A stretch of DNA of 64,000 nucleotides from Bacteroidetes bacterium HGW-Bacteroidetes-10 (GTDB taxonomy: Bacteria > Bacteroidota > Bacteroidia > Bacteroidales > UBA932). The DNA is taken from NCBI GenBank assembly GCA_002842695.1, contig PHDT01000006.1, positions 2,358 through 66,357 on the forward strand, given 5' to 3'. The number at the start of each line of letters is the position of its first letter. The stretch's first letter is position 1. Position numbers and translations under genes: made by a program. Below the pieces are notes generated by a model. It ran no database searches and was not told where the DNA came from. It saw nothing but the letters and a program-made list of their open reading frames with translations. This document shows positions 44,512 to 58,135 of the stretch, piece after piece.

Positions 44512-45726
44512 TTATTTTAACAAACCGGCAATATAACCGGTTGTCCAGGCGTTCTGAAGGTTATACCCGCCAGTAATTGCATCAATATCCAGAACTTCAC
44601 CCGCAAAATAGAGACCTGTACATCTCTTGCTCTCCATGTTTTTGAAATTGACATCATCCAGACTCACTCCGCCGCAGGTGACAAACTCCTCGCGGAAGGT
44701 TGTCTTGCCCTTTATTGAATATTCATCATTAGTAAGCAGGTTAACGAGCCTGTTCTTCCCTTTGCTTCCAACCTCCACCCACTTCTTGTCTGAGGGAAGT
44801 TCACACTTCCCCAGAAGAAAATCCCACAGACGGACCGGTATAGCATATGGTCTTACTGTTGTGAGCATTTTGCCGGGATGGTCAGAAATAATTTTATCAA
44901 TTACTTCTGTTACCTTATCATTGTTAGTCTCATTTACCCAGTTAACCTGAATTTTGAAGTCATATCCCCTCTCACTCATTATCCTTGCACCATGAGATGA
45001 CAGCTTAAGAATTGCAGGACCGCTCATTCCCCAGTGGGTTATCAGGAGCGGGCCACCTGTTCTTATTTTTGTACCCTGAAGAGTTACCAGTGCCTCTTCA
45101 ATAACAATTCCCATAAGTTTCCTTATATCTTCTCCGGGCATGTTGAAGGTGAAGAGTGAGGGTACAGGTTCTTCGATTTTGTGGCCCAGTCTCTCAAGCC
45201 ACTCCAGCCCGCTCCGCTTTGGAGATCCTCCGGTAGTTATAATAACTTTGTCGAACGATAAGGGTACCCTCTCTGGATTAATAAAAGTAAGTTCAAGTGA
45301 ATTACCGGCCCGGGTAATGGATTTTACACCTGCATCTGTAATTACCTCCACACCCAGTCGTTTTGCCTCTCTGGTCAGACAGCTGGTGATGCTGCCGGAA
45401 TCCTGCGTCCTGGGGAAGATGCAGCCATCAGCCTGTAAAACAAGCTGAACACCTCTTGATTCAAACCACTGAACAGTATCTTTATTGTTAAAAAAGGGAA
45501 ATATTTTTCTAAGCCTGCGTCCGCCGCGGGGGTATGCGCCGCAAAGCTCGTCAATGGTTTCACAGCCGTTGGTGACATTACACCTGCCGCCTCCTGAAAC
45601 CCTTACTTTGTGCAGTACTTTTGATGATTTTTCGAAAATGGTAACTGATGCCTCCGGGTGATTCTCCTTTGCTGTAATTGCAGAGAAGAAACCGGCCGCA
45701 CCTCCGCCTATGATGGCAACATTCAT
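44512..45726 (-). CDS. NAD(P)/FAD-dependent oxidoreductase (HI0933/BaiN-like)
   Basis: 404 aa with N-terminal IIGGGAAGFF, GGGRCNVTN and C-terminal FAGEVLDIDAITGGYNLQ blocks. Confidence 0.85.
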   Translation of the reverse strand: MNVAIIGGGAAGFFSAITAKENHPEASVTIFEKSSKVLHKVRVSGGGRCNVTNGCETIDELCGAYPRGGRRLRKIFPFFNNKDTVQWFESRGVQLVLQADGCIFPRTQDSGSITSCLTREAKRLGVEVITDAGVKSITRAGNSLELTFINPERVPLSFDKVIITTGGSPKRSGLEWLERLGHKIEEPVPSLFTFNMPGEDIRKLMGIVIEEALVTLQGTKIRTGGPLLITHWGMSGPAILKLSSHGARIMSERGYDFKIQVNWVNETNNDKVTEVIDKIISDHPGKMLTTVRPYAIPVRLWDFLLGKCELPSDKKWVEVGSKGKNRLVNLLTNDEYSIKGKTTFREEFVTCGGVSLDDVNFKNMESKRCTGLYFAGEVLDIDAITGGYNLQNAWTTGYIAGLLK

Positions 45727-45729
45727 TGA

Positions 45730-46566
45730 TTAACTCCTTTTTCCCATATCGTAAGTCATTTGTCTAACAATCTGGGCCCATTCGTAATGAGAGTGGCTCT
45801 TGTCAAAAGTAGTCCACGGAATGGGTTTACCGATACTTACTTTGATAGTGGTATTCCTTTTGCGGAAAATTTCATGTGGCAAAAGCATCAGTTCAATGTT
45901 TGCTTTAATGCCAAAGAATTTTCTGATATTATTAATTCTGTAGAAGAGCTTTGAGTTTGTTCCATGGAAAAATAGCGGAACAATATCCCTCTGGTGAGCA
46001 ACTGATTTGGCAATGAAGCTTTTCTGCCAAGGCAAATCCTGAATCATTCCATCTCTCTTTCTTGAAACAATTCCGGCAGGGAAGTGGGTTATTGCTATAT
46101 CCTGACTATAAGTCTCTTCAATAGCTCGAAGGTACTCTTTTGAAGATGAACCAAACACATTTACCTTAACAACGAATGGCTGAAGCTGAGGAATAAACCT
46201 GAAAGTGTCGTTGGCAATGGCTTTAAGAGTTCCGTATTTCTGAGAGACAATATATGTGAGAACAAGACCATCTGCAAACCCAAAAGGGTGGTTTGCCGCA
46301 AAAAAGCACTTGCGGTGTTCCGGCAGATTTTCCAGTCCGTCAATGTCAAGTGTGATATTGAAATCCTTAAGAACACACTCCAGAAATTCTGCTCCCTCTG
46401 TGTGAGAAAATTTGTTGAGCAGAACATTCAAATCCTTCTCGTGTACAATTCTTGCTATGATTTTAAGAATAAAACCGGGTAGATTTTTGAGGAGTTTAGA
46501 GCTCGATTCAGCTACATTTTTCTCAACATCAATGTATTTAATATATTTCTTCTCGTCTGTAGACAT
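45730..46566 (-). CDS. Lysophospholipid/glycerolipid acyltransferase family protein
   Basis: 278 aa with an acyltransferase-type ANHPFGFADG block and a downstream FPAG motif. Confidence 0.65.
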   Translation of the reverse strand: MSTDEKKYIKYIDVEKNVAESSSKLLKNLPGFILKIIARIVHEKDLNVLLNKFSHTEGAEFLECVLKDFNITLDIDGLENLPEHRKCFFAANHPFGFADGLVLTYIVSQKYGTLKAIANDTFRFIPQLQPFVVKVNVFGSSSKEYLRAIEETYSQDIAITHFPAGIVSRKRDGMIQDLPWQKSFIAKSVAHQRDIVPLFFHGTNSKLFYRINNIRKFFGIKANIELMLLPHEIFRKRNTTIKVSIGKPIPWTTFDKSHSHYEWAQIVRQMTYDMGKRS

Positions 46567-46610
46567 TCTTGGGTTATTTAAAAGCCTGCGAAAGTACTGA
46601 AAAAATGGAA

Positions 46611-47525
46611 TTAATATTTAATTCCTGTAATTTCTTCTGATACTTTCCAGAGCTCTTGTGCCACCTTTTCGTTGTAAAGTGACTCTATCTCCTTGCTAAT
46701 GGCCGGATTGCCACGCCAGTTGCCGCGACCCTCTGGTCCAACATATTCTCCACCCTTAAGATCAGGATAAGTGGCCGCAAACAGGGTAGGGAGCGCTCCC
46801 ATTTCTGCAGGCTGACCAACAAGTCTGAATCCCCAGTTGATAAATCCTCCGGTTTGTTTTCCTGACCCCCTTGACATTAGATTTGTAGCAGATACACCAG
46901 GGTGGCATATAATACTTTTTGTATCAGCACCTCTCTCTTTAAGAAGCATATCCAGTTTCCGGCCAAAGAGCATGTTTGAGTATTTGCTCTGACGGTAAAA
47001 CTTCATTGGAGAGTAGCCCTTTTTGCCGTCAAGATTTGTAAAATCAATCTTTGCACCTCTGCTGGCAATACTGCTGACTGTAACTATCCTTGAGCCCGGT
47101 GTTGCAGTAATGACCGGAAGAAGCAAACCTGTAAGAAGAAAGTGAGCAAGGTGATTTGTGCCAAACTGAAGCTCCCATCCCTGAAGGGTATGCCTGAGAG
47201 GCGGAATCATAACGCCGGCATTATTAATTAGCAGATCAAGCTTTTGACCTCTAAGAGCGTAGGTCTCTGCAAAGAGCTTTACGCTTTCAAGGTCTCCAAG
47301 GTCAATATGCATCAGCTCCACTTTTGCGTTTGGATATTCTGCCAGAATAAGGTCAGCAGCTTTCTGTCCCTTCCCTATGTTTCTTACAGCAAGAATCACA
47401 TGAGCACCTTTTGCTGCCAAAACCTTTGCAGCGTCAAAACCAATTCCGCTTGCACCTCCTGTGACAATTACATTTTTTCCGGTGAGGTCTCCAATATTAT
47501 CCTTTGTCCAGTTACTTTTAGTCAT
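46611..47525 (-). CDS. SDR-family oxidoreductase
   Basis: 304 aa with VTGGASGIGF, NNAG and YRQSK motifs. Confidence 0.85.
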   Translation of the reverse strand: MTKSNWTKDNIGDLTGKNVIVTGGASGIGFDAAKVLAAKGAHVILAVRNIGKGQKAADLILAEYPNAKVELMHIDLGDLESVKLFAETYALRGQKLDLLINNAGVMIPPLRHTLQGWELQFGTNHLAHFLLTGLLLPVITATPGSRIVTVSSIASRGAKIDFTNLDGKKGYSPMKFYRQSKYSNMLFGRKLDMLLKERGADTKSIICHPGVSATNLMSRGSGKQTGGFINWGFRLVGQPAEMGALPTLFAATYPDLKGGEYVGPEGRGNWRGNPAISKEIESLYNEKVAQELWKVSEEITGIKY

Positions 47526-48979
47526 TGTTTTAAATTTTGCCCAAAGTTAATAATCTTTCCTGCCATACCTCCAAACATAATCAGATGCACAGGCAGCAGG
47601 ATGTACCAATATGCCCTGCCGGAGAGACCCTTAGGTCTGAAAGTTGCTTTCTGGAACAGAAACTCCTTTCCATCTATTGATGTGATTCGAAATTCAAGCC
47701 AGGCCTCACCCGGGAGCTTCATCTCAGCAAAAAGCAGAAGCCTGCGGCCTGGTTTGTCTGCAACCAGAACCCTCCAGAAATCAAGGGTATCTCCTGCATT
47801 TATTGCAAGGCGGTTTGTTCTTCCTCTTCTGAGCCCCACACCACCGGCCATTTTGTCTATCAGCCCCCTGATACGCCACAAAAAATTCCCGAAGTACCAG
47901 CCTCTGTCACCGCCAATAGACCAAATATTTGACAGCACAATCCGGGAGCTGCCTTTTATCTCTCTTACTCTCTCATCTGTCAGTACTCCGTTCTCAGGTA
48001 CATTTACATTTGAAAAGAGAGAGTTGTCATTATAACTGGATACTAGTGAGTCCTTCCAGCTGGAAGGAACTTCGTCCTGCTCAATTACCCTTAATGCCTC
48101 AGCAACTGCTTCACTGTATGGTGTCAGAGTTATTCCCAGAAGCTTTGCCAGATTATTTTTTCTTGCAACTACTTCAATTTTCATGCTGTTAACAAGATTG
48201 GATGCCAGGGAAAAAGAGGTTGAGGTTATGAAATACAGCCAGTATGAAGACAACTTTGGAGTCATTACAGGTACCGTCAGAATGTATCTTTTGAGTCCTC
48301 TCTCTCGGCCGAAACCAAGTAGCATATCTTTGTATGTGAGTATATCCGGGCCGCCAATATCGTATGAGTGACCATATGTTTCGGGTTTATTTAAAACTCC
48401 GGTAAGAAATTCAATTACATTTCTTACAGAAATGGGCTGAGTTCTGGTGTTTAGCCATTTGGGCGCTACCATTACAGGGAGTTTTTCCACAAGATCGCGG
48501 ATAATTTCAAATGATGCACTGCCGGAGCCAACAATAATTCCGGCTCTTAATGTTGTTAGAGGGACGGAGCTCTTACTCAGAATGTCCTCAACATTTTTTC
48601 TTGATGCAAGGTGTTGTGAGAGCCTCTCTTCATTTACAATTCCACTCAGATATACAATCTGCTTAGCACCGGTTCCTTCAATAAAACTAACAAAATTTCT
48701 GGCTGAGAGAGCCTCCATTTCTGTGAAGCTGCCTTTATTGGTGCTCATTGAATGAATAAGATAATATGCTGCATCAATATCTTTTATGCTGTCATATATC
48801 TCAACACCCCTAAGAAAGTCGGCCTCAATTACAGAAACTGAAGGATGAGACAGAATGCCTTCTGCCCTGAAACGGTTGCGGTCTCTTACGCAACAAACTA
48901 TTTCGTGCCCCTGCGCAAGCAAAGATGGCAATAACCGTTTGCCAATATATCCGTTAGCTCCTGTAAGCAATATCTTCAT
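47522..48979 (-). CDS. NAD(P)H-binding (NmrA-like) domain fused to DUF2867-like C-terminal domain
   Basis: 485 aa with N-terminal LTGANGYIGKRL. The C-terminal ~150 aa (WRVLVADKPGRRLLLFAEMKLPGEAWLEF) resemble DUF2867. Confidence 0.7.
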   Translation of the reverse strand: MKILLTGANGYIGKRLLPSLLAQGHEIVCCVRDRNRFRAEGILSHPSVSVIEADFLRGVEIYDSIKDIDAAYYLIHSMSTNKGSFTEMEALSARNFVSFIEGTGAKQIVYLSGIVNEERLSQHLASRKNVEDILSKSSVPLTTLRAGIIVGSGSASFEIIRDLVEKLPVMVAPKWLNTRTQPISVRNVIEFLTGVLNKPETYGHSYDIGGPDILTYKDMLLGFGRERGLKRYILTVPVMTPKLSSYWLYFITSTSFSLASNLVNSMKIEVVARKNNLAKLLGITLTPYSEAVAEALRVIEQDEVPSSWKDSLVSSYNDNSLFSNVNVPENGVLTDERVREIKGSSRIVLSNIWSIGGDRGWYFGNFLWRIRGLIDKMAGGVGLRRGRTNRLAINAGDTLDFWRVLVADKPGRRLLLFAEMKLPGEAWLEFRITSIDGKEFLFQKATFRPKGLSGRAYWYILLPVHLIMFGGMAGKIINFGQNLKQ

Positions 48980-48980
48980 G

Positions 48981-49238
48981 CTACTCTTCTGATTCAGTCA
49001 GGTTTTTCTGATACTCATCAACTATGGGCTTTGCCCTGTCCAGATCTATTACAGATATAACAACCTTCACGGCAAATCCGCCTCCGCCGGAAACCCACCA
49101 TGGAGTCATGGTGCCAAGAATGTCATCCTTAAGATATGCCTTGATCTCGGCTGCTTCAAGCAAACTTTTGACCATCTCTGCCTGCCAGCTTGTGCCGGCA
49201 AAAATTTCTACTGTGTCTGTGTATTTATGACTTTTCAT
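48981..49238 (-). CDS. Small DUF2007-like protein
   Basis: 85-aa ORF tightly coupled to the neighbouring genes. The family call is tentative. Confidence 0.5.
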   Translation of the reverse strand: MKSHKYTDTVEIFAGTSWQAEMVKSLLEAAEIKAYLKDDILGTMTPWWVSGGGGFAVKVVISVIDLDRAKPIVDEYQKNLTESEE

Positions 49239-49271
49239 GATTGTATATCTTTAAGTTTAATTATAAGCTAT

Positions 49272-49850
49272 CTAAATCTGTCTCCTACCCAGCTCCTCTG
49301 TCTCTTTAATCCATTTGTCCCGTCGCTTTTCTGTAGAGCTCTTAACCTGGTCGAAAGTTGTTATCCTTACAGGTTTGATTCCGCAGAACTCAAGGATGCA
49401 CCTTTTGATTGAGTGGTGCCCCGGTTGCCTGAAGACCAGTTTATAGTACCATACAGGTGTATCCATAGTGACAATTACTCGTGCACTTCTTCCTGTTAGC
49501 AACTTGTCCCACATAGGAGAGTTTTCTCTGTAGCTGAAAGCATATTTTGGAAGAAATACCCTGTCAAAGAATCCTTTAAGAAGAGCGGGGTATGTTCCCC
49601 ACCATGTAGGGTAAATGAAAACCAGGTGGTTTGCCTCAAGAATATCTTTCTGAATTTCAACCAGATCTGGCTCCAGCTCTGTTCTCTGTCTGTAGCCATG
49701 TTTAAGAACAGGCTCAAACTCCAGGTCTGCCAGATTCACAAGCTTAATCTGTGCTCCGGATTGCCTGGCACCTTTTATGTAAGCATCTGCAAGAATTGTG
49801 TTGAGACTCTCTTTGTCGGGATTTCCGTTGATTACCAGGATCTTTTTCAT
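49272..49850 (-). CDS. Flavodoxin-like-fold NAD(P)H dehydrogenase (quinone)
   Basis: 192 aa. MKKILVINGNPDKESLN and FIYPTWWGTYPALLKGFFDRV are typical of the MdaB/KefG-like family. Confidence 0.8.
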   Translation of the reverse strand: MKKILVINGNPDKESLNTILADAYIKGARQSGAQIKLVNLADLEFEPVLKHGYRQRTELEPDLVEIQKDILEANHLVFIYPTWWGTYPALLKGFFDRVFLPKYAFSYRENSPMWDKLLTGRSARVIVTMDTPVWYYKLVFRQPGHHSIKRCILEFCGIKPVRITTFDQVKSSTEKRRDKWIKETEELGRRQI

Positions 49851-49965
49851 ATCTGATATTTGAGTTCTAATTTACTAATTCATTTCCACAGAATGCCTAT
49901 TATTTTTCTTTAACAGAAATTCCCTGCTCTGGCAACTATACTTGTATGCTGCCCTTAATAACTAT

Positions 49966-50367
49966 CTACTCAATGACAGGGACTGCCGGTCTGCCTCTAA
50001 GCGCACTCCAGGTGTCATCTATTGCAATCTGAGTAACCGGTCTCAGACCTATGAGCTCAAATGCACTCCAGACTGTCTCTCTTTTAATATCGCTTTTAAT
50101 CGCTCCTGTTCCTTTAGGATAACATGCCCAAAACATACAGTCATGTTTGCCGGCGTTCCTGAGGTGTTTTATCAGGAATTCAAGCTCCTGCTGATTTGTG
50201 GCAAACACCATAATAAAGTCATATTGTTTCTCATTAGAGGCTCCATCGTAGCGGTTGTCGAATTTGATTTCATAAAACGAGGTAAGAAGTTCAGAAGGCG
50301 CATTATGTATAAGAGCCTTCATTGAGGGATCGTACTTTAGTTTTTTGATAACAGCGGCTGCATCCAT
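49966..50367 (-). CDS. Hypothetical protein (DUF3052-like?)
   Basis: The ORF 49966..50442 was trimmed to MDAAAVIKKLKY (ATG 50367). The family call is tentative. Confidence 0.5.
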   Translation of the reverse strand: MDAAAVIKKLKYDPSMKALIHNAPSELLTSFYEIKFDNRYDGASNEKQYDFIMVFATNQQELEFLIKHLRNAGKHDCMFWACYPKGTGAIKSDIKRETVWSAFELIGLRPVTQIAIDDTWSALRGRPAVPVIE

Positions 50368-50456
50368 TGACTTTGAGTTGTTAATTGATTTTGTGTAAAT
50401 ATAGAAAAAAAGTGGCTGCGCCGCAATTTCTGTTAATTGCATGTATATCAGTAAAA

Positions 50457-50497
50457 TGAAAAAGACAAACTTTTCATATTGAGAAGTTTGTCTTTTG
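50457..50497. terminator. Intrinsic terminator after the DsrE-like gene
   Basis: AAAGACAAACTT (50461-50472) pairs with AAGTTTGTCTTT (50484-50495) in a 12-bp stem with flanking A/T runs. Confidence 0.7.
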
Positions 50498-50553
50498 TAA
50501 ACATCAGAAATACAAAATGTTAACAGAAATTGCGGCGGAGATTTCTTGCTCCT

Positions 50554-50910
50554 TTAAAACGTCAGCACCCTGTCACTATCCGTAACCCACTCAGCAAGAG
50601 TTGCCATAGTCGATTTCTCAGCTCCCTCAAAATATGGATGGTTTTTGTAAATACCGCACCTCGCCATACATGTTCCGCAAACTTTAACGGGAACATTGTT
50701 TGAAATGAGATCCCTTAACATCTGAGAGAGATCCTGGTCGTAACCTTCAGGCGCTTTGCAGACATCCCTTGCCATATCTACAGAGTCATTCATAAGGAAG
50801 ATTCTTACATCGTTGCCGTTCTTTCTGAGAGTTTCGGCGAGACGAAGGCCGTTCCAGGTGACATCTGTGTTGTCGTATGGTTCACGGTTGAATATTATAA
50901 GGACTTTCAT
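50554..50910 (-). CDS. DsrE/DsrF-like family protein
   Basis: 118 aa. The MKVLIIFNREPYD start and the VCGTCMARCG block resemble the DsrE-like fold. Confidence 0.7.
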   Translation of the reverse strand: MKVLIIFNREPYDNTDVTWNGLRLAETLRKNGNDVRIFLMNDSVDMARDVCKAPEGYDQDLSQMLRDLISNNVPVKVCGTCMARCGIYKNHPYFEGAEKSTMATLAEWVTDSDRVLTF

Positions 50911-50947
50911 GATTGATTTTATTATGCTTATGGAAAATATTGTTAAA

Positions 50948-50979
50948 CAAAAATAATTAATCTATGCCACATATGCAAA
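50948..50979 (-). promoter_or_regulatory. Candidate promoter of the DsrE-like gene
   Basis: On the minus strand, TTTG (50979-50976) is followed by a 20-nt spacer and TATTTTTG (50955-50948). It lies 37 nt upstream of the ATG at 50910 and abuts the outer end of repeat A. Confidence 0.5.
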
Positions 50980-50980
50980 T

Positions 50981-51406
50981 CTGACATGTTAGTTTTTCAT
51001 GAATAAAACTCTATCAGCAATTATTTCACCAAACCCAGATTAGCAAACAGTTTCCTAAGATTTCGGCTAACGACCCGTACGGCTGTATCGCGCTGTAAAT
51101 CAACGAGAGCCACTTTGTCCCCGCGGATGATCCGCGGGGATAAAGTGCTACTTGCAGATATACAATTAGTTACAGCCGTACGGGTCCGTGAAAAATTGAC
51201 ATTTAAAACATACTCGAAACCCTTACCAGGCAATGAAAACGACCTTCTGCGAGCAAGCTTGATAAACCTGTGCCGAAGGCTAACTCCCGCCGGGCATTTG
51301 CCCGGCACCTTTTAATTCTTATTAATTCTGCTACAATATTTCCAAACCGTTCATATATGGTACCATCCGCTTCGCAGCCGGTGGAGGTGCAGCGCTTCGC
51401 GCGCGC
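50981..51406 (+). repeat. Repeat copy A (~426 bp) of an unclassified structured element; inverted partner at 56703..57129
   Basis: It aligns end to end with the reverse complement of 56703-57129, roughly four-fifths identical by eye. It contains a 115-nt hairpin (51072-51186) and a terminator-like hairpin GCCGGGC-ATTT-GCCCGGC (51289-51306) followed by ACCTTTT. Confidence 0.85.
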
Positions 51407-51443
51407 AAGCAGCCTAAAGTTACCGCATGCGGCTGCTTACCTC

Positions 51444-51489
51444 TGAGGCAAGGTCGGTGAGGCAAAGGCGTCGAGGTAAGGTCATCGAG
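51444..51489. repeat. Three and a fraction tandem ~14-nt repeats (GAGGCAAGG core)
   Basis: The sequence reads TGAGGCAAGGTCGG / TGAGGCAAAGGCGT / CGAGGTAAGGTCAT / CGAG, directly abutting repeat A. Confidence 0.6.
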
Positions 51490-51496
51490 TTGTTAA

Positions 51497-51535
51497 ACGA
51501 AAAACAACCTGACAGATGTCCTGTCAGGTTGTTTT
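51497..51535 (-). terminator. Intrinsic terminator after the BFD-like gene
   Basis: AAAACAACCTGACAG (51501-51515) pairs with CTGTCAGGTTGTTTT (51521-51535) in a 15-bp stem with a T-rich tail on the minus strand. Confidence 0.75.
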
Positions 51536-51608
51536 GCAATATGGATATTTAGCTTGTTATGGCAATAAGGGTGGCGTTTGCAACGCGATTGAGGCTGTGT
51601 GGGTGAGG

Positions 51609-51788
51609 TTATCCGTTGATTTCGTTCAGGATATCCTGAATGTCGTCCTGACATTGTCCGCAGACGGTGCCTGCTGTGGTTATATCTCCAACCTCATCGA
51701 CTGTTTTTAAACCATTTTCTTTGATTGCCTTAACAATTTCGCTTTTGTAAATTTCATTGCAAGTGCAAATGAGTGTATCTTCTGCCAT
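51609..51788 (-). CDS. BFD-like [2Fe-2S]-binding domain protein (59 aa)
   Basis: Not in the ORF track (<60 aa). The minus strand encodes MAEDTLICTCNEIYKSEIVKAIKENGLKTVDEVGDITTAGTVCGQCQDDIQDILNEING, with the C-x-C...C-x2-C pattern of bacterioferritin-associated-ferredoxin-like domains. Confidence 0.75.
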   Translation of the reverse strand: MAEDTLICTCNEIYKSEIVKAIKENGLKTVDEVGDITTAGTVCGQCQDDIQDILNEING

Positions 51789-52050
51789 CTTTTTTATTGT
51801 TTAGTTAATATTAATCGTTTGGTGTGAAGTTTTTAAAGTCAGGAGTTATAATAACGGCTTATTTTATTTATTGTTCATTTGAAAACAGAATTGTTCGGAA
51901 AAGTTACCGGATGTATCTCTTTACGTTAGTTTGACCGAGGTCATGGTAAGTGAGCCGCCAACCGCTTTGTCGTTGAAGATGTGTGCATGCTCATCTTTGC
52001 TTTGCAGGGCAAGGATGAGGGCTTTGGGTGTCTGATAAGGGACAGCTGGT

Positions 52051-52722
52051 TTAGCGGGAGTACCTGGCGGCAAGCAGGAAGGATAAGATTGTAAGCTGAG
52101 TCCAGGCTATAGAAATTACAGCCACTTCAAAGATATACTCACGCATAATCCCATAGCTGTATATGACAGATGCCAGCGACAGCAGGGCGAGGATGAATCC
52201 GCATACCATGGTAACTCTGATGCTCTTGCCAAGCGGGCTCTTCCAGGAGTAGGCCGGGGCGGCGGTAAAGAGGGCAAGGGTCATGAGCAGAAATCCCGCC
52301 TCTTCAAGAGCAATAAAGATTCCGTGCGGGTTGAACTGGGTGAGAAGGGCGATTCCTTGGGTTTCGCCGCTGAGAAGACTTTGCTGAATTACAGTTACCT
52401 GTATAAAGTAATCAGATATAAGCATTACTGCGGATATAATAGCGAAGGAGAGTCCCATTCTGCTGAATAGTTTTTTCTCTGCAGGTGCATCGTTGTGTAT
52501 AAGAGAGAGAAGTGAGACAAACAACAGGGAGATGAACATTGCAGGGAACATCCACCAGTAGTCGCGTGGGAAACGGGAGGCTATCTCTGCGTAGGGATAT
52601 TCAAAACAGTTACCGGTGGTGCAAAAGGGGCCTGAGAGGGGCGGAGTCATTACCGCAAGGACAAAGGTTCCAAGGGTTACGAGGCCGGTTGTAAGAGCCA
52701 GCCATTTGCCGGGGTTTTTCAT
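52051..52722 (-). CDS. Hypothetical integral membrane protein (~6 TM)
   Basis: 223-aa hydrophobic ORF whose start overlaps the stop of the upstream gene. I recognise no family. Confidence 0.6.
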   Translation of the reverse strand: MKNPGKWLALTTGLVTLGTFVLAVMTPPLSGPFCTTGNCFEYPYAEIASRFPRDYWWMFPAMFISLLFVSLLSLIHNDAPAEKKLFSRMGLSFAIISAVMLISDYFIQVTVIQQSLLSGETQGIALLTQFNPHGIFIALEEAGFLLMTLALFTAAPAYSWKSPLGKSIRVTMVCGFILALLSLASVIYSYGIMREYIFEVAVISIAWTQLTILSFLLAARYSR

Positions 52723-53906
52723 TATATGTTTTTTTTGAGTTCTTGTTCCTTGTTTGGCGACAGGGTTCCAATCATCATAATGAGGGTTGTTATCACAACA
52801 ATCTGCAGAATAAGGTTTTGGTTAACAAAACCAATTTTATCAAGCGGAGAGATGGTAAGGAAGAGAAGAATTGTGATTAGACCGCGGGGTGCAATAAAGA
52901 CAAGAGGGAAGATTTTCTGGCCGGTTAGTTTTAACTGTAATGCCCGGATGATCAGTATAACACCCACTATACAAAAGGCCCACTGAAGGGAGTCGGCATT
53001 AAGAATTTCAGAGGTCTCAACAAGGAATCCGAACATAAGAAAGAAGAGTGAGCGGATTAGAAAAGTTGCTTCTGATGTGATTTCGCGGAAGCGGGTAACC
53101 TCTTTGTCAAGTGATCCGGTGTCCAGGCTATTAAGAATACTGATTCGTTTAAGTTTATCAAGATTTCCTATAGAAATACCAAATAGTAAAATAAAGATTA
53201 AAGCTGGTAGGTGGTAAAACTCGGCTATAGAGTATATTAGTATAACAAGAAGAATGATAGGAATAAACTTGATGTGATGATCGAGCTTGCTCAGCAGGAA
53301 AGAGAGGCCCACTGTAGCAATCGTTGATATAACAACCATCAATAGAAGTTCTAAACCAAAATCAACAAATGCTCCAAGAGTATATTTGGTGCTCATGGCA
53401 ACAAACGTAAAGAAAATTACACCAACTATATCTGAAAAGCTGGTGTCGTAAACAATAAATTCACGGTGTCTGCGTGACATGTTTCTGGAACTGGGAATTG
53501 CTATTGCGCTGCTTATAATGCTTATTGGAATTGCGTTCACCAGTGCCGAATTGAATGATTGGTCATCTATCATATAAAACAACCAAGCTATAGCGAAAGC
53601 GATTGCAAAGATTGAAAAGAGAGACCCCAGAAATGATTTTGAAATTAATTTTAGCTTTGATTTGTTGAAATCAAGTTCCATCGAGCCGTCCAGTACGATG
53701 AGAATCAGCCCTACAGATCCTAAAACAGGCAGAGTTGTTGTAAAATCGGGTACTTTAATACCCAGGAAGGTAGTTAATTCCTGAAGCAGCCAGCCAAGAA
53801 CCAGCAGCAGTATTACGGAAGGGACTTTGGTTTTTGTAGAGGTGAGGTCAAAAATATATGCAACCAGCAGCAAAGCGCAGAATGTTATGATTATAGTCGC
53901 TGTCAT
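52722..53906 (-). CDS. Cation:proton antiporter (Na+/H+ exchanger family)-like membrane protein
   Basis: 394 aa with ~11 TM segments. The N-terminal pattern (VPSVILLLVLGWLL...LGSVGLILIVLDGSMELD) resembles CPA-family exchangers. Confidence 0.55.
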   Translation of the reverse strand: MTATIIITFCALLLVAYIFDLTSTKTKVPSVILLLVLGWLLQELTTFLGIKVPDFTTTLPVLGSVGLILIVLDGSMELDFNKSKLKLISKSFLGSLFSIFAIAFAIAWLFYMIDDQSFNSALVNAIPISIISSAIAIPSSRNMSRRHREFIVYDTSFSDIVGVIFFTFVAMSTKYTLGAFVDFGLELLLMVVISTIATVGLSFLLSKLDHHIKFIPIILLVILIYSIAEFYHLPALIFILLFGISIGNLDKLKRISILNSLDTGSLDKEVTRFREITSEATFLIRSLFFLMFGFLVETSEILNADSLQWAFCIVGVILIIRALQLKLTGQKIFPLVFIAPRGLITILLFLTISPLDKIGFVNQNLILQIVVITTLIMMIGTLSPNKEQELKKNI

Positions 53907-53940
53907 GCAGGTGCGTCCGGTTAATTTTTAATAAATGTAG

Positions 53941-54774
53941 TTACTTTTTTAACATTTTCTGCAATGAAAAAATTGTAATAATTGTAATGGATGGAATAAT
54001 GAACACTGCGGGTATTACATTTACTCCCTGAATAGCCATTGCGGCAATCTTTGCGCAGAGCGCTGTCATGAGAAGCGAAAGAAACCCAAGGTATACGGTT
54101 CCCAGAACAAACCCGGCCGCCTTCCCTCTGTATAGCATAAGCCCTGTAATAAAACTGGCAGGAAGAAGCAGACCAAGGTCAAATCCCTGAACTATTAGTG
54201 TAGTGTAGTGGTCAAGTTCTCCGGGATAAATGGTGCCGTCTAAAAGCGGTGGCAGGACTACACTTAACCAAAGCATAGCAATAATAACTGAGTTAAATAC
54301 GAGTAAACCGCCGGCAAATTTATGAGGGGCCTTTTCTGAGAATTCTCCTGAACCGGCTGTGAAATTAAAGGAGAGAATCAGCCTTAAAAAGGTAAAGAAA
54401 GTTAGACCGAGAAGTGTCACCCACACAAGAAACATATAGTTATACATCCCCATTGCAGTGTAAAAGAGATAGGTAACAAGCAGATAGCCGGTTGTGCCTG
54501 TCAGGATATATTTTGAGCGGATGCTTCCTTTGCGGAATCCGGCAAATGAGAAAATGAGCAATGGTATTGCAATGAACAGAGTGACATAATCCTGAGCAAT
54601 TCCCTGAATGGCTACATCTGAGGACATATGCTTATAAATACCCTGTCCGTACAATTCAATGGTTTCACCTCTGACAGTTGTGTACTCCGATGGCCCGGGG
54701 CCGTCATTTGTGAAGATTCCACAGCATGCTGCGACTGCCGCGAGTATTGATATGAGGGTAATCTGGAGTTTCAT
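53941..54774 (-). CDS. Hypothetical integral membrane protein (~8 TM)
   Basis: 277-aa hydrophobic ORF in the same operon. I recognise no family. Confidence 0.6.
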   Translation of the reverse strand: MKLQITLISILAAVAACCGIFTNDGPGPSEYTTVRGETIELYGQGIYKHMSSDVAIQGIAQDYVTLFIAIPLLIFSFAGFRKGSIRSKYILTGTTGYLLVTYLFYTAMGMYNYMFLVWVTLLGLTFFTFLRLILSFNFTAGSGEFSEKAPHKFAGGLLVFNSVIIAMLWLSVVLPPLLDGTIYPGELDHYTTLIVQGFDLGLLLPASFITGLMLYRGKAAGFVLGTVYLGFLSLLMTALCAKIAAMAIQGVNVIPAVFIIPSITIITIFSLQKMLKK

Positions 54775-54848
54775 GGGCGGGATGATTATAAATTTGTTTT
54801 GATGATTCTAAATATGTTTCTCAAATTCTAATTCCGGTGACAAAGACT

Positions 54849-55427
54849 CTAAACAATTTCAATCCCAAAAACATCAAGGAGACCCGAAAGACCGCTTTGG
54901 GAAAACTTTGCTTTTTTGATTTTGTTCGATGTGGGATCAATTGAGTAGTTGAAGGATGTTGAGAGGTCTGCCTTCTCCAGGTTTGTACCGGAAAAGGTGG
55001 CATTCAGCATATCACATCCGTCCAAAAGTGAGCCGGAAATGTCTGAATCTGTGAAATCTGCCTCCTGGAGTGAGGATTTTCTGAAAATTACCTTTTTGAT
55101 TTTCATTCCAAAAAAGGAGGAGTTGTTCAGTATACACCCCTGAAAATCGAATGAAATCCCAATCTGGTCGCAATCTTCAAAATGGAGCCCCACCATTTTG
55201 CACTCACTGAAGGTAATATCCCGAAGGGCTGTCCGTTTTAGTTTAGCAAGGCTGAGGTTACTGCGAAAAAACGTGCATCCGTCAAAGATGAATTCTGACA
55301 GGTCTGAATTTGAAAAGTCGCAGTCGGTGAAGGTGCAGTTTTCGTACTCACCCTTTAAAGGCCCGCTCTCTCTGAGGTCTGCGCCGGTAAATGTTTGTGA
55401 AGCGATTAAAATTGGCTCGGATCTCAT
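54849..55427 (-). CDS. Pentapeptide-repeat protein
   Basis: 192 aa of consecutive A(D/N)LxX-type pentads (CTFTDCDFSNSDLSEFIFDGCTFFRSNLSLAKL...). Confidence 0.8.
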   Translation of the reverse strand: MRSEPILIASQTFTGADLRESGPLKGEYENCTFTDCDFSNSDLSEFIFDGCTFFRSNLSLAKLKRTALRDITFSECKMVGLHFEDCDQIGISFDFQGCILNNSSFFGMKIKKVIFRKSSLQEADFTDSDISGSLLDGCDMLNATFSGTNLEKADLSTSFNYSIDPTSNKIKKAKFSQSGLSGLLDVFGIEIV

Positions 55428-55448
55428 CTTTGAATCTGGAGTTTTTAC

Positions 55449-55631
55449 TTACGCTGCAAGGTGCTTAAACAGTTCGTATACCATGAACGCCGGCCATATT
55501 AATGCTTTCAGGAAACCAAGCACTCCTGTCCAGAAGGAGGTTGAGGCTCCAATAAAATAGATAGCTGCTCCAATGAGTCCGAGTCCGTAAACTGCACCAC
55601 ACGGAGCAGTGTTGTTCATCTCTTTTTTCAT
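55449..55631 (-). CDS. Small membrane protein (60 aa, 2 TM)
   Basis: Gly-rich TM segments (GAVYGLGLIGAAIYFIGAS) in a tight operon context. Confidence 0.5.
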   Translation of the reverse strand: MKKEMNNTAPCGAVYGLGLIGAAIYFIGASTSFWTGVLGFLKALIWPAFMVYELFKHLAA

Positions 55632-55655
55632 AGTTATTTGATTGAGGTTATGATG

Positions 55656-56159
55656 TTATTTTAAGTCCAAATCCAGTTGCCTTCCCTCTTCTGCCGCCTT
55701 TTTATCCATTCCAGAGCCAACCGCCATTCCAATGGCAAGTCCAATTGGAAGGCCGATTCCCAGATATGCCATGTTTCCAAGTGAGGTTCCGAATGCCACT
55801 CCCAGCGGAATCCCAAAAGCTGCCATTCCAATCGCCATCCACTGATTCTGATAATAATTTTTTGGAACAAGCTTCAGTTCCTTTTCCAGCATAGTTAGTG
55901 TGCTGCTGATAAAGTTTCTGAGCATTCTGCTCATCTCTTTGCTTTGGCCGGGAAAACCATTAATTGAGGTTATTTCGGCATTGATCTTTTCAACAATGTG
56001 TTCCGGAATTTCCCTGCTGCGAAGAACCTCAGTCAGCCTTACAGCCTGCCAGAAAGCAGCGTCAAATCTTTTGTCTCCGGCAAAATCAGGGCGCTGAATC
56101 AGTTTTTGAATTTCTGTATGCATGTGTGTTAGTGTTTTGATGACCTTAATGGAAAACAT
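55656..56159 (-). CDS. Hypothetical protein with C-terminal glycine-zipper membrane segment
   Basis: 167 aa with a soluble helical N-terminus followed by GMAAFGIPLGVAFGTSLGNMAYLGIGLPIGLAIGMAVGSG. Its start abuts the upstream stop. Confidence 0.55.
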   Translation of the reverse strand: MFSIKVIKTLTHMHTEIQKLIQRPDFAGDKRFDAAFWQAVRLTEVLRSREIPEHIVEKINAEITSINGFPGQSKEMSRMLRNFISSTLTMLEKELKLVPKNYYQNQWMAIGMAAFGIPLGVAFGTSLGNMAYLGIGLPIGLAIGMAVGSGMDKKAAEEGRQLDLDLK

Positions 56160-56567
56160 TTAAAACGGGAACCAGTAGCTCTCAGGCATTGAGATAACTC
56201 TGTCTTCTGTCATTACCACATCTGTTTCAGTAACAAAATCGCCACCATCGGGCATAGGGTCATTCAGGCCGGCATTTTTATTCATGTCAATGAAAGAGTA
56301 CAGCCTGTAGGTTTTGGGAACAATGTCTTCAATGACTACAGTTGCAATAGAGCTGGTAAATGCTGCATCACCTTCATATAGCGTAGGATCATCAGCTTCA
56401 CCGTTTTCCTGCACCAGTTTGATGTAAACCTTTACACCGTTAGGCACATTCTGTTTGCTGACCATTGCATTGAGATATACATTCGGGGACTTTTCACAGG
56501 AACTCAGCAACGGAGTTATAATTGCCAATGCAAGAAGCATTGCAAAAATGCGTGAAATGTTTTTCAT
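56160..56567 (-). CDS. Hypothetical lipoprotein (first gene of the operon)
   Basis: 135 aa with a signal peptide and lipobox (LLSSC). Confidence 0.6.
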   Translation of the reverse strand: MKNISRIFAMLLALAIITPLLSSCEKSPNVYLNAMVSKQNVPNGVKVYIKLVQENGEADDPTLYEGDAAFTSSIATVVIEDIVPKTYRLYSFIDMNKNAGLNDPMPDGGDFVTETDVVMTEDRVISMPESYWFPF

Positions 56568-56604
56568 AATATTGATGTTTTTGAACTTGTCTCAGAAACG
56601 TGTG

Positions 56605-56612
56605 CAAATATA
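56605..56612 (-). promoter_or_regulatory. Candidate -7 box (TATATTTG) of the membrane-protein operon
   Basis: Exact TAnnTTTG match on the minus strand, 37 nt upstream of the ATG at 56567. The -33 element is poor. Confidence 0.4.
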
Positions 56613-56702
56613 ATTATTTATCTAACCAAAAGTGTTGCCTGGCAGGATGAAAATTGCCTGCCAAAGTTTCCACGTGCAGTTTTCCCCAGGGGTAAACTGC
56701 CT

Positions 56703-57129
56703 CGCGCGCGAAGCGCTGCACCTTCACCGGCTGCGAAGCGGACGGTACCTTATAAGAGTGCTTTGCTCACCGGCAGGAGCGAGATTTGTCAGAAATGTAT
56801 GGTGCCGGGCTGCACCCGGCGGGAGTTAGCCTTTGGCAAAGGTCTTCAAGCTTGCATGCCTGAAGTTGTTTTTCTTTGTGTGGTGCGGGTTTCGAGTGTG
56901 TTTTGCCTTGTTATTTTTCATGGACCCGTATGGCTGTAACTATCTGTACGTCTGTGTGTAGCACTTTGTCCCCGCGGATCATCCGCGGGGACAAAGTGGC
57001 TCTCAGTGATTTACAGTGCGTTGCAGCCGTACGGGTCGTTAACAGGAATCTTATGAAACTGTTTGCTAATATGGGTTTGGTAAAAAAATACTGACTGAGT
57101 TTTGTTCATGAAAAACTAACATGTCAGCC
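56703..57129 (-). repeat. Repeat copy B (~427 bp), inverted relative to copy A
   Basis: Its reverse complement aligns with 50981-51406. It carries the same hairpin (56923-57037) and the same GCCGGG...CCCGGC hairpin (56804-56820). Confidence 0.85.
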
Positions 57130-57245
57130 TAAATTGCATTTATCTGATTTACTTGCTTTTAACTTTGCAGAAAATTATAAAAATTCAAATTTAGAAATCG
57201 TATATTATTGATATAATGACGATTGTAATTTAGGCTGACATGTGT

Positions 57246-57416
57246 CTAAAGTTTCCCACGTGCAGAACTCTGCCAGAGTTCCATTTTACCCCTGGGGAAA
57301 AGTGTCAGATTATTGATAAACAAGCGCTTATGTAAAATAGAAATATTTCACAACTAGCTGTATGTGTGACGTTTGACACTTTTCCCCAGGGGTAAATTGC
57401 ACGTGGGAAACTTTAG
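57246..57416. repeat. Large imperfect palindrome (19 + 24 bp arms) at the 3' end of the LysE-like gene
   Basis: CTAAAGTTTCCCACGTGCA (57246-57264) pairs with TGCACGTGGGAAACTTTAG (57398-57416). ATTTTACCCCTGGGGAAAAGTGTCA (57283-57307) pairs with TGACACTTTTCCCCAGGGGTAAAT (57374-57397). The left arm is interrupted by the mini-hairpin GAACTCTGCCAGAGTTCC. Confidence 0.8.
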
Positions 57417-58135
57417 TAGGCAACAATCGCGACGGCTGAATATATCAGCATCAGGGACATCACTACATTGAAAGTGTAGTAGAAGAGTTTGTTTTTAAAG
57501 TAAGCGGAGAAGGTTGACCCGATTAGAGTCCAGAGCGCGATTGAGAAAAAGCCCGCAACAGTCAGAAAGAATGCCGATGCCAGTACGGCTGTGGCTGAGG
57601 TGCCTATCAGGAGCGAGAAAGATGAGTAGAGTGTTATGCCGTAGAGGATCACTTTGACGTTTACCAGCTGCAATATCATTCCGTTGAAGAGGGTGTAGCC
57701 AGCGAACCTGTTTTTAGTTTTTTTGTTAGGAATGTTTGAATTTGAATGCCCGAGCTTACTATCTGATGAATCATCTAACTTGCTATCAGATAGGATGCTT
57801 GTATGTTTTGCAGACTGGTCAACTGGTTGGTTTTGGAAATCTGGTGTTTTGCCTGGCAAAAATGGCATCAGCGCAAGCCAGAGCATGTAGAGGGCGCCAA
57901 TCCAGCGGAGGTAGGGGGAGATGGTGCCGTAAATGTTGAGGATAAAATCAAGCATTAGCCCGCATGCCGCAAGAATTGCGAAAAAGCCAATTGAAATGCC
58001 GGTGAGGTATGGAAGGGTTTTACTGAAGCCCTGCTGCATTCCGGCCTGGGAAGAGGAGGCGTTGTTTGGGCCGGGGGTGAAGGTTGTTACGATTGCGTAT
58101 GTTATAAAAGGGGCTAGCAGTTCCGGATGAGTCAT
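57413..58135 (-). CDS. LysE-family translocator-like protein with low-complexity central insertion
   Basis: 240 aa with the N-terminal TFTPGPNN motif and 6 TM segments. A ~50-aa Ser/Asp/Lys/Asn-rich loop (SILSDSKLDDSSDSKLGHSNSNIPNKKTKN) lies between the two halves. Confidence 0.7.
   Translation of the reverse strand: MTHPELLAPFITYAIVTTFTPGPNNASSSQAGMQQGFSKTLPYLTGISIGFFAILAACGLMLDFILNIYGTISPYLRWIGALYMLWLALMPFLPGKTPDFQNQPVDQSAKHTSILSDSKLDDSSDSKLGHSNSNIPNKKTKNRFAGYTLFNGMILQLVNVKVILYGITLYSSFSLLIGTSATAVLASAFFLTVAGFFSIALWTLIGSTFSAYFKNKLFYYTFNVVMSLMLIYSAVAIVAY

Follow-up and report, generated by a model that had tools for sequence, protein, structure and literature searches.

Inverted hairpin repeats around a membrane-protein operon in an uncultured Bacteroidota genome: probable members of a dispersed REP/RAYT-like family

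Bacterial interspersed mosaic elements (BIMEs) of enterobacteria and the BOX elements of pneumococci combine a palindromic core with conserved modules that vary in order, number and orientation, and are clustered in particular intergenic spacers. Palindrome-associated transposable elements (PATEs) and miniature inverted-repeat transposable elements (MITEs) derived from IS200/IS605 are non-autonomous, carry subterminal hairpins and are served by a Y1 transposase in trans. Repetitive extragenic palindromes (REPs) tagged with GTAG, and REPtrons, have also been described (PMC3733652), with GTAG repeats reported from Proteobacteria, Cyanobacteria, Chloroflexi and the Planctomycetes-Verrucomicrobia-Chlamydiae (PVC) group and only CGTC repeats from Bacteroidetes (PMC3733652). 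Bacteroidetes genes of TnpA_REP subclass 2.6 are bordered by atypical secondary structures with copies elsewhere in the genome (PMC6006769); the proteins of TnpA_Y1 subclass 2.6 have the motifs NH[LIV]H and YIH[QN]NP and a mean length of 179 amino acids (PMC6006769). Here, a pair of inverted repeats is examined that brackets a membrane-protein operon in a 64,000-nucleotide stretch (the window) of contig PHDT01000006.1 of Bacteroidetes bacterium HGW-Bacteroidetes-10. The pair had been noticed in an earlier inspection of the same DNA without database searches, referred to below as the original prediction. With a probability of roughly 0.8, the repeats belong, independently of each other, to a dispersed mosaic family of intergenic elements of the kind mobilized by REP-associated tyrosine transposases (RAYTs), comparable to BIMEs and REPINs.

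The repeat pair as part of a dispersed family

By blastn, the left copy (50981-51406) aligns end to end with the reverse complement of the right copy (56703-57129; match 57127-56703), with 80.7% identity in 430 columns and an E value of 8.7e-109; MAFFT reproduced this alignment from end to end and placed indels of 1-2 nt in it. This agrees with the original prediction, which had put the identity at about four-fifths and had named start and end strings common to the copies; both strings were found in both. Blocks of 36 and 23 bp are shared without mismatch, a 36-nt stretch around the hairpin tip is identical in the two copies, and faint homology runs on for ~50 nt beyond 51406. As had been claimed, nothing points to coding, because the 1-2-nt indels are not multiples of 3 and the short open reading frames (ORFs) of the left and right copies do not correspond. 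The eight minus-strand ORFs said to be enclosed by the copies were likewise confirmed. The description of the copies as GC-rich islands stands insofar as they lie above their surroundings (adjoining spacers, 21-39%), but at 47-50% GC, against a window mean of 43%, they are only mildly GC-rich. The ends of the unit, CTGACATG... and ...CGCGCGCG, are not complementary, so that it lacks terminal inverted repeats of its own; no target-site duplication was seen, and the flanks differ between the copies.

No third copy of 50981-51406 was found within the window by blastn. The hairpin-tip pattern was scanned in 185,579 species-representative genomes and in metagenome contigs; loci are cited below by L numbers. 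In the genome collection, extended homology was confined to two Bacteroidota metagenome-assembled genomes, HGW-Bacteroidetes-14 (L027, L032 and L035) and Bacteroidales P24860_112_MAG_60 (L040 and L052), and 29 of the 34 tip matches were rejected as 21-nt chance matches, mostly in GC-rich genomes and with no flanking similarity. The metagenome scan returned 46 loci, with 11 sites on the 1.6-Mb contig Ga0209639_1000001 and seven on the 767-kb contig Ga0074193_1000003. With blastn and an nhmmer profile, no fewer than 17 copies of nearly full length (80-97% identity) were found, plus many shorter forms that cover profile positions 2-347 or 2-270, the hairpin with the M/N block (Table 1), or the hairpin alone. 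An orientation could be assigned to 35 copies, and every one of them is intergenic (14 between co-directional genes, eight between convergent genes and none between divergent genes). By BLAST and copy number, a comparison that the original prediction had proposed, the repeat is thus multi-copy, intergenic and dispersed in relatives, and no target duplication was seen with it. Searches of phage and plasmid collections by blastn gave no match, and scans of IMG/VR with the 5' block and the tip gave none either. The 3' block AGGTGCAGCGCTTCGCGCGC does occur in nine GC-rich phage contigs of IMG/VR, which was put down to chance because the matches lie inside one related coding sequence (reading EVQRFARD).

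Over the region from the hairpin to the M/N block, the left copy shares 91% identity with L058 and 88-89% with L055, L067 and L084; for the right copy the figures are 97% with the L072 orthologue and 93% with L065, whereas the window copies share only 80% with each other. Each therefore resembles copies from other loci more than it resembles its partner, and the two represent different subfamilies rather than a duplicated pair.

The hairpin ends in a 37-nt palindrome, CACTTTGTCCCCGCGGATsATCCGCGGGGACAAAGTG, with a stem of 18 bp. GTAG stands directly 5' of this palindrome on exactly one strand in 33 of ~52 family tips and on both strands in none; it is absent from variants with the TTAAC stem or the GGTCTGACATCT tip. 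Folding is better on the GTAG strand in 19 of 26 copies, and this strand holds more G.U/G.T pairs, which is suggestive only, as the copies are related to one another.

Genes for Y1 transposases are found among such hairpin units in relatives of the window genome. At L052 (also assembled as L063 and L090), a 271-amino-acid ORF with NHVH and YILQNP motifs and a Y1_Tnp domain (PF01797, 36 bits) has hairpin units on both sides. The Y1_Tnp protein of L088 (PF01797, 33.8 bits) is 58% identical to that of L052, and its gene has two hairpin and M/N units on each side; the 767-kb contig Ga0074193_1000003 holds this gene together with ~90%-identical full-length copies. The RAYT of L100, P0002 (69% identity), likewise matches PF01797 and was named 'REP element-mobilizing transposase RayT' by the Joint Genome Institute, and its gene is flanked on both sides by hairpin units with the window-type tip and GTAG. 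P0002 and P0003, which are 67-69% identical to the L088 protein, both adjoin rpmA-rplU (L100-L104 and L108-L111), and this shared neighbourhood suggests that the RAYT locus is fixed and vertically inherited. Homologues at E<1e-10 are rare, with just 16 in a search of 5.8 billion proteins.

The two sites in relatives and the favoured explanation

The contig L087 is collinear with window positions 44807-58129 at 81-96.5% identity and keeps the operon. Its left copy is 97% identical, with an X module in place of the first 26 nt. In the spacer that separates the operon start from the LysE-like gene, it has a distant Y1_Tnp-like gene and Z modules instead of the right copy; the encoded protein, of 280 amino acids, is 33% identical to that of L052 (tblastn E 2e-36). 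The right spacer is a RAYT-type locus in this relative. L072, with flanks 96-97% identical to those of L087, has the right copy at that site (91% identity), and an orthologue of the right copy (87%) is also present in L070, from the 1.6-Mb contig. In the strain variant L010, 344 bp of the left copy have been deleted between CAGCCG microhomologies. These comparisons show that the operon exists with one copy and that the copies come and go at the level of modules; at both window sites, the assembled contigs thus demonstrate presence/absence and replacement polymorphism. The region of the 394-amino-acid membrane-protein gene (window 52722-53972; L087 7976-10233) has no nucleotide match between the two and is ~1 kb longer in L087, which indicates that the gene content of the operon differs between close relatives.

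Membership of the family rests on this anatomy and on the association with transposase genes, from which we infer mobility driven by RAYT. The transposase would act on single-stranded DNA hairpins formed by the GTAG strand, in the manner of the IS200/IS605 and REP mechanism, and the units would thereby spread and be reshuffled. Once in place they would be at most passive hairpins, serving as terminators or as structures at mRNA ends. The inverted layout around the operon would then arise because two neighbouring intergenic spacers were occupied separately, and would not mark a functional unit. Of the three candidates in the original prediction, a non-autonomous mobile element comes nearest, since the family is dispersed, intergenic and multi-copy and its hairpin units flank Y1_Tnp/RAYT genes, but a reading of the copies as long terminal repeats of a 5.3-kb unit is not supported.

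Several observations weigh against this explanation. Compared with classical REPs or REPINs, the unit is much longer and its sequence is more conserved outside the palindromes, so that an additional function is conceivable. Copy density is low by the standard of REP families (~7-9 exact tips per Mb), and the copies are mutually related, so that the counts for intergenic context, folding strand and GTAG tags are not independent. No RAYT homologue was found in the window by tblastn; the earlier statement that the window holds no transposase, integrase or recombinase is upheld to this extent, other recombinases not having been screened across the window ORFs. The Y1_Tnp-like gene of L087 reaches 18 bits in Pfam, where the cut-off is 23, and its flanks are two Z modules, not the 115-nt hairpin. 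A search for a clean empty site gave only the internal 344-bp deletion of L010 and module-level replacements, and no target duplication was found, so that mobility of the units is putative.

It is conceivable, though rather unlikely, that this is the first GTAG-REP/RAYT system to be described in Bacteroidota, with an unusually large composite unit (335-430 nt) whose nearly invariant non-palindromic blocks, M/N and P/Q, have a function of their own instead of merely hitch-hiking; they might, for example, provide a recognition or cleavage context for the rare long RAYT subfamily or form a transcribed RNA element.

On the favoured explanation, that of independent REP/RAYT-type members, the apparent oddity of the locus is removed, and the repeats are neither a pair of unknown RNAs, nor an inversion switch, nor the ends of a cargo transposon around the membrane-protein operon. 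For uncultured Bacteroidota, a system of REP/RAYT type is documented that combines a GTAG tag with nested hairpins of great length, a mosaic of accompanying modules and a rare subfamily of long RAYTs, where earlier surveys had only CGTC repeats or 'atypical structures' for this phylum. The hairpins also break short-read contigs and mark hot spots of intergenic rearrangement between strains. Short-read contigs were often seen to stop within the 115-nt hairpin or at the repeat boundary, namely L007-L009 and L002 (at their starts) and L105 and L106 (at both ends).

Anatomy of the unit and the alternative explanations

The features of the two copies and of their surroundings are listed in Table 1. 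From the start of the hairpin to the end of the P/Q block, the core measures 335 nt in the window, and its order recurs in distant genomes, at intervals of 335 nt in L052 and of 307 nt in L027; the 91-nt 5' block is an extra of the window lineage. Within the long hairpin, the foot (GACCCGTRCGGCTGTAAC and its complement) and the tip are conserved and the middle is variable. The M/N block is the most conserved block of the family, nearly invariant in 26 diverse copies and with one compensatory change; a scan for sigma-70 promoters and terminators found its hairpin to be terminator-like in the left copy only and not in the right. P/Q blocks were found at 14 sites at related loci, at times detached from the body of the unit or inverted relative to it. 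In short copies consisting of the hairpin and M/N, the hairpin is inverted relative to M/N when compared with full-length copies. Such a 'flip/flop' of the long hairpin against M/N can be seen in L069, L071 and L061a as against the window copies, and the central loop base is G or C.

Table 1. Positions of the two repeat copies, their blocks and the companion modules in the window
Feature	Coordinates	Strand	Remarks
Left copy of the composite unit	50981..51406	+	blastn and MAFFT against right copy; nhmmer profile positions 2-437, 474 bits; module order on + strand: 5' block, 115-nt hairpin, M/N block, P/Q block
Right copy of the composite unit	56703..57129	-	identical module order on minus strand; nhmmer 514 bits
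Left 115-nt imperfect palindrome (long hairpin)	51072..51186		inverted repeat I5; arms 57 nt, spacer 1 nt
Right 115-nt hairpin	56923..57037		inverted repeat I6; predicted folds
REP-like tip, left hairpin	51111..51151	-	37-nt palindrome CACTTTGTCCCCGCGGATGATCCGCGGGGATAAAGTG; GTAG 51148-51151 on minus strand
REP-like tip, right hairpin	56958..56998	+	GTAG (56958-56961) and 37-nt tip palindrome
M/N block, left	51278..51306	+	GGCTAACTCCC, then 7-bp GC hairpin GCCGGGC-ATTT-GCCCGGC
M/N block, right	56804..56831	-	
P/Q block, left (3' module)	51341..51406	+	GGTACC...CGCTTCGCAGCCGGTG.AGGTGCAGCGCTTCGCGCGCG
Weakly homologous tail	51407..51480	+	degenerate TTACCyCTGrGG motif and G-rich repeat; alignment columns 494-520
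Module Y	57119..57243		125 bp; 20-nt terminal inverted repeats ACATGTCAGCCTAAATTGCA / TGTAATTTAGGCTGACATGT, AT-rich core; I18
Module X region	57252..57410		half-site with small palindrome AACTCTGCCAGAGTT (57252-57281) and full unit 57282-57410; I9, I10
Module X half-site	56667..56699	+	abuts inner end of right copy; I9, D2
Module Z remnant	56638..56665	+	CCTGGCAGGAT...

The right copy is embedded in further local repeats that are part of this repeat system (56638-56699 and 57119-57410). Three companion modules, X, Y and Z, were distinguished there, each of which is found at several other loci, and Y or X lies ahead of many copies elsewhere. Module Y overlaps the first bases of the right copy and precedes copies at eight other loci; in a variant with the termini CACCTGCCAGCC / GGCTGGCAGGTG, terminal complementarity is preserved by paired changes. 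The full unit of module X is a 129-bp inverted repeat made of TGACACTTTTCCCCAGGGGTAAATTGCACGTGGGAA and its inverse; module X was found at 12 sites in 10 other loci. Intact module Z is a 123-bp inverted-repeat unit, seen on either side of the Y1_Tnp-like gene at the right-copy site of L087.

Other structures adjoin the units. G-rich short repeats lie next to hairpin units in three lineages, at 51440-51480 in the window, at 1960-2200 and 3630-3680 in L052 and at 520-600 in L035 (examples are GAGGCAAGGTCGGTGAGGCAAAGGCGTCGAGGTAAGGTC and, in L052, GGTGGAGGTGGAGGGAGGCAG). A perfect 13-bp stem, AACAACCTGACAG / CTGTCAGGTTGTT, with T-runs on both sides, lies at 51503-51533 between the last gene of the operon and the left copy and looks like a putative bidirectional terminator; a nearly identical hairpin stands directly upstream of another copy in L099. 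Inside the pentapeptide-repeat gene, 21 nt (55318-55338) are 95% complementary to part of the P/Q block (56716-56736), probably by chance.

The original prediction had named an unknown structured RNA as a candidate, and a multi-copy gene whose structured non-coding RNA is the active product, its spread through the genome being secondary, is improbable but fares best among the explanations that set the mobile family aside. Predicted folds of both strands of both copies are far more stable than those of shuffled sequences (z -4.7 to -7.8), with the left hairpin dominating its fold (z -7.8 on the plus strand and -4.7 on the minus strand), but it is the palindromic core that makes either strand fold well. 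Pairing is kept despite wholesale swaps of the tip (CACTTAACCCC/GGGGTTAAGTG in L052; GGTCTGACATCT/AGATGTCAGACC in L061 and L088), and ten hairpin pairs are altered on both sides in three of the 26 sequences. Such compensatory changes, the enrichment of G.U pairs on one strand, the near invariance of non-palindromic blocks such as M/N in distant genomes and the frequent transcription of REPs (PMC3733652) would all suit an RNA, and transcribed hairpins are indeed possible. Against this, no Rfam family was recognized at gathering or relaxed thresholds, and the sequence upstream differs between copies (a Y module, an X module, a terminator or none of these), so that there is no constant promoter. 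Copies are truncated, permuted or have the hairpin inverted relative to M/N, the modules being shuffled between copies; units flank transposase genes, and the L010 strain lacks most of the left copy.

In the Rfam scan of the window, only tRNAs passed the gathering threshold, and relaxed scans gave spurious matches to plant and animal miRNA hairpins far below it. The tRNA genes are four in number, on the minus strand at 853-1187, the one at 1025-1098 scoring 33.9 bits against a threshold of 29. Promoter-like TAnnTTTG sequences of the Bacteroidetes type were looked for at a fixed place upstream; they occur in module Y (57160-57167 on the plus strand and 57186-57193 on the minus strand) and not at copies without Y, and were not used as evidence. 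A reading as integron attC sites was dropped because RYYYAAC/GTTRRRY boxes were absent on inspection by eye.

The two remaining explanations, in which the copies are terminal repeats or inversion arms of a 5.3-kb unit as the original prediction had framed them, are not supported by the comparison with relatives, since L087 has the operon with the left copy only, L010 is without most of the left copy, the partner of each copy is less similar to it than copies at other loci, and all assemblies are collinear. A composite or decayed mobile element that ends in the two copies and has the eight-gene operon as cargo is very improbable: inverted repeats do bracket the gene block, and the flanking DsrE-like and LysE-like genes are functionally unrelated to it, but L087 has the operon in the corresponding position and no right copy, the copies are of different subfamilies, the two ends of the unit do not form inverted repeats, no target duplication was seen, and the unit is found singly at dozens of unrelated loci. 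Equally hard to credit is inversion of the operon segment by homologous or site-specific recombination between the copies, for which their inverted arrangement, length (427 bp) and perfect blocks and the 33-nt and 20-nt inverted repeats around the right copy might speak, given identity of just 80.7%, a single copy in L087, the lack of a RAYT homologue in the window (the only recombinase screened) and one orientation throughout in the small sample of three same-species contigs (L001, L005 and L006) and three syntenic relatives (L087, L072 and L070), which could have missed rare inversion.

Comparison with known systems

Like GTAG-tagged REP/RAYT systems (REPtrons and REPINs), the family described here consists of intergenic palindromic repeats with GTAG at one end and on one strand and with many copies per genome (PMC3733652, PMC3116915, PMC6006769). 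It also resembles them in avoiding divergent promoter regions and, in relatives, in having a Y1 HUH transposase gene flanked by repeats. The tip stem, at 18 bp, exceeds the 5-13 bp of the REPs described in PMC3733652. Unlike classical REPs, the tip tops a 115-nt hairpin and lies within a 335-430-nt unit with conserved non-palindromic blocks, and the low copy density (~7-9 per Mb) and the phylum, Bacteroidota, depart from the REP/RAYT norm. The RAYT, of 264-271 amino acids, has a long C-terminal extension. In a REPIN, two REP units stand in inverted orientation about a short spacer and form one hairpin. The 115-nt hairpin here is a single long, imperfect palindrome that bears just one REP-like palindrome, at the tip, and modules X, Y and Z (~125 bp, with 20-30-nt terminal inverted repeats and an AT-rich core) fit the REPIN layout better than it does.

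Similarity to TnpA_Y1 subclass 2.6 (RAYT group 5) lies in the occurrence in Bacteroidetes and in a Y1 gene flanked by unusual hairpins with genomic copies (PMC6006769). The proteins found here differ from that subclass in having NHVH or NHAH and YILQNP motifs and 264-271 amino acids, and, by comparison of motifs alone, the printed motif of subclass 2.7 fits them at least equally well.

By analogy with PATEs and MITEs, the units appear to be non-autonomous elements with hairpins whose Y1 transposase would be supplied in trans. They differ in that no autonomous multi-copy insertion sequence with matching ends was found, in having no terminal inverted repeats of their own, and in a transposase that looks single-locus and vertically inherited. 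BIMEs and BOX elements have no sequence relationship to the family, and its modules are much longer than theirs; it is in its mosaic build that the family seems closest to them.

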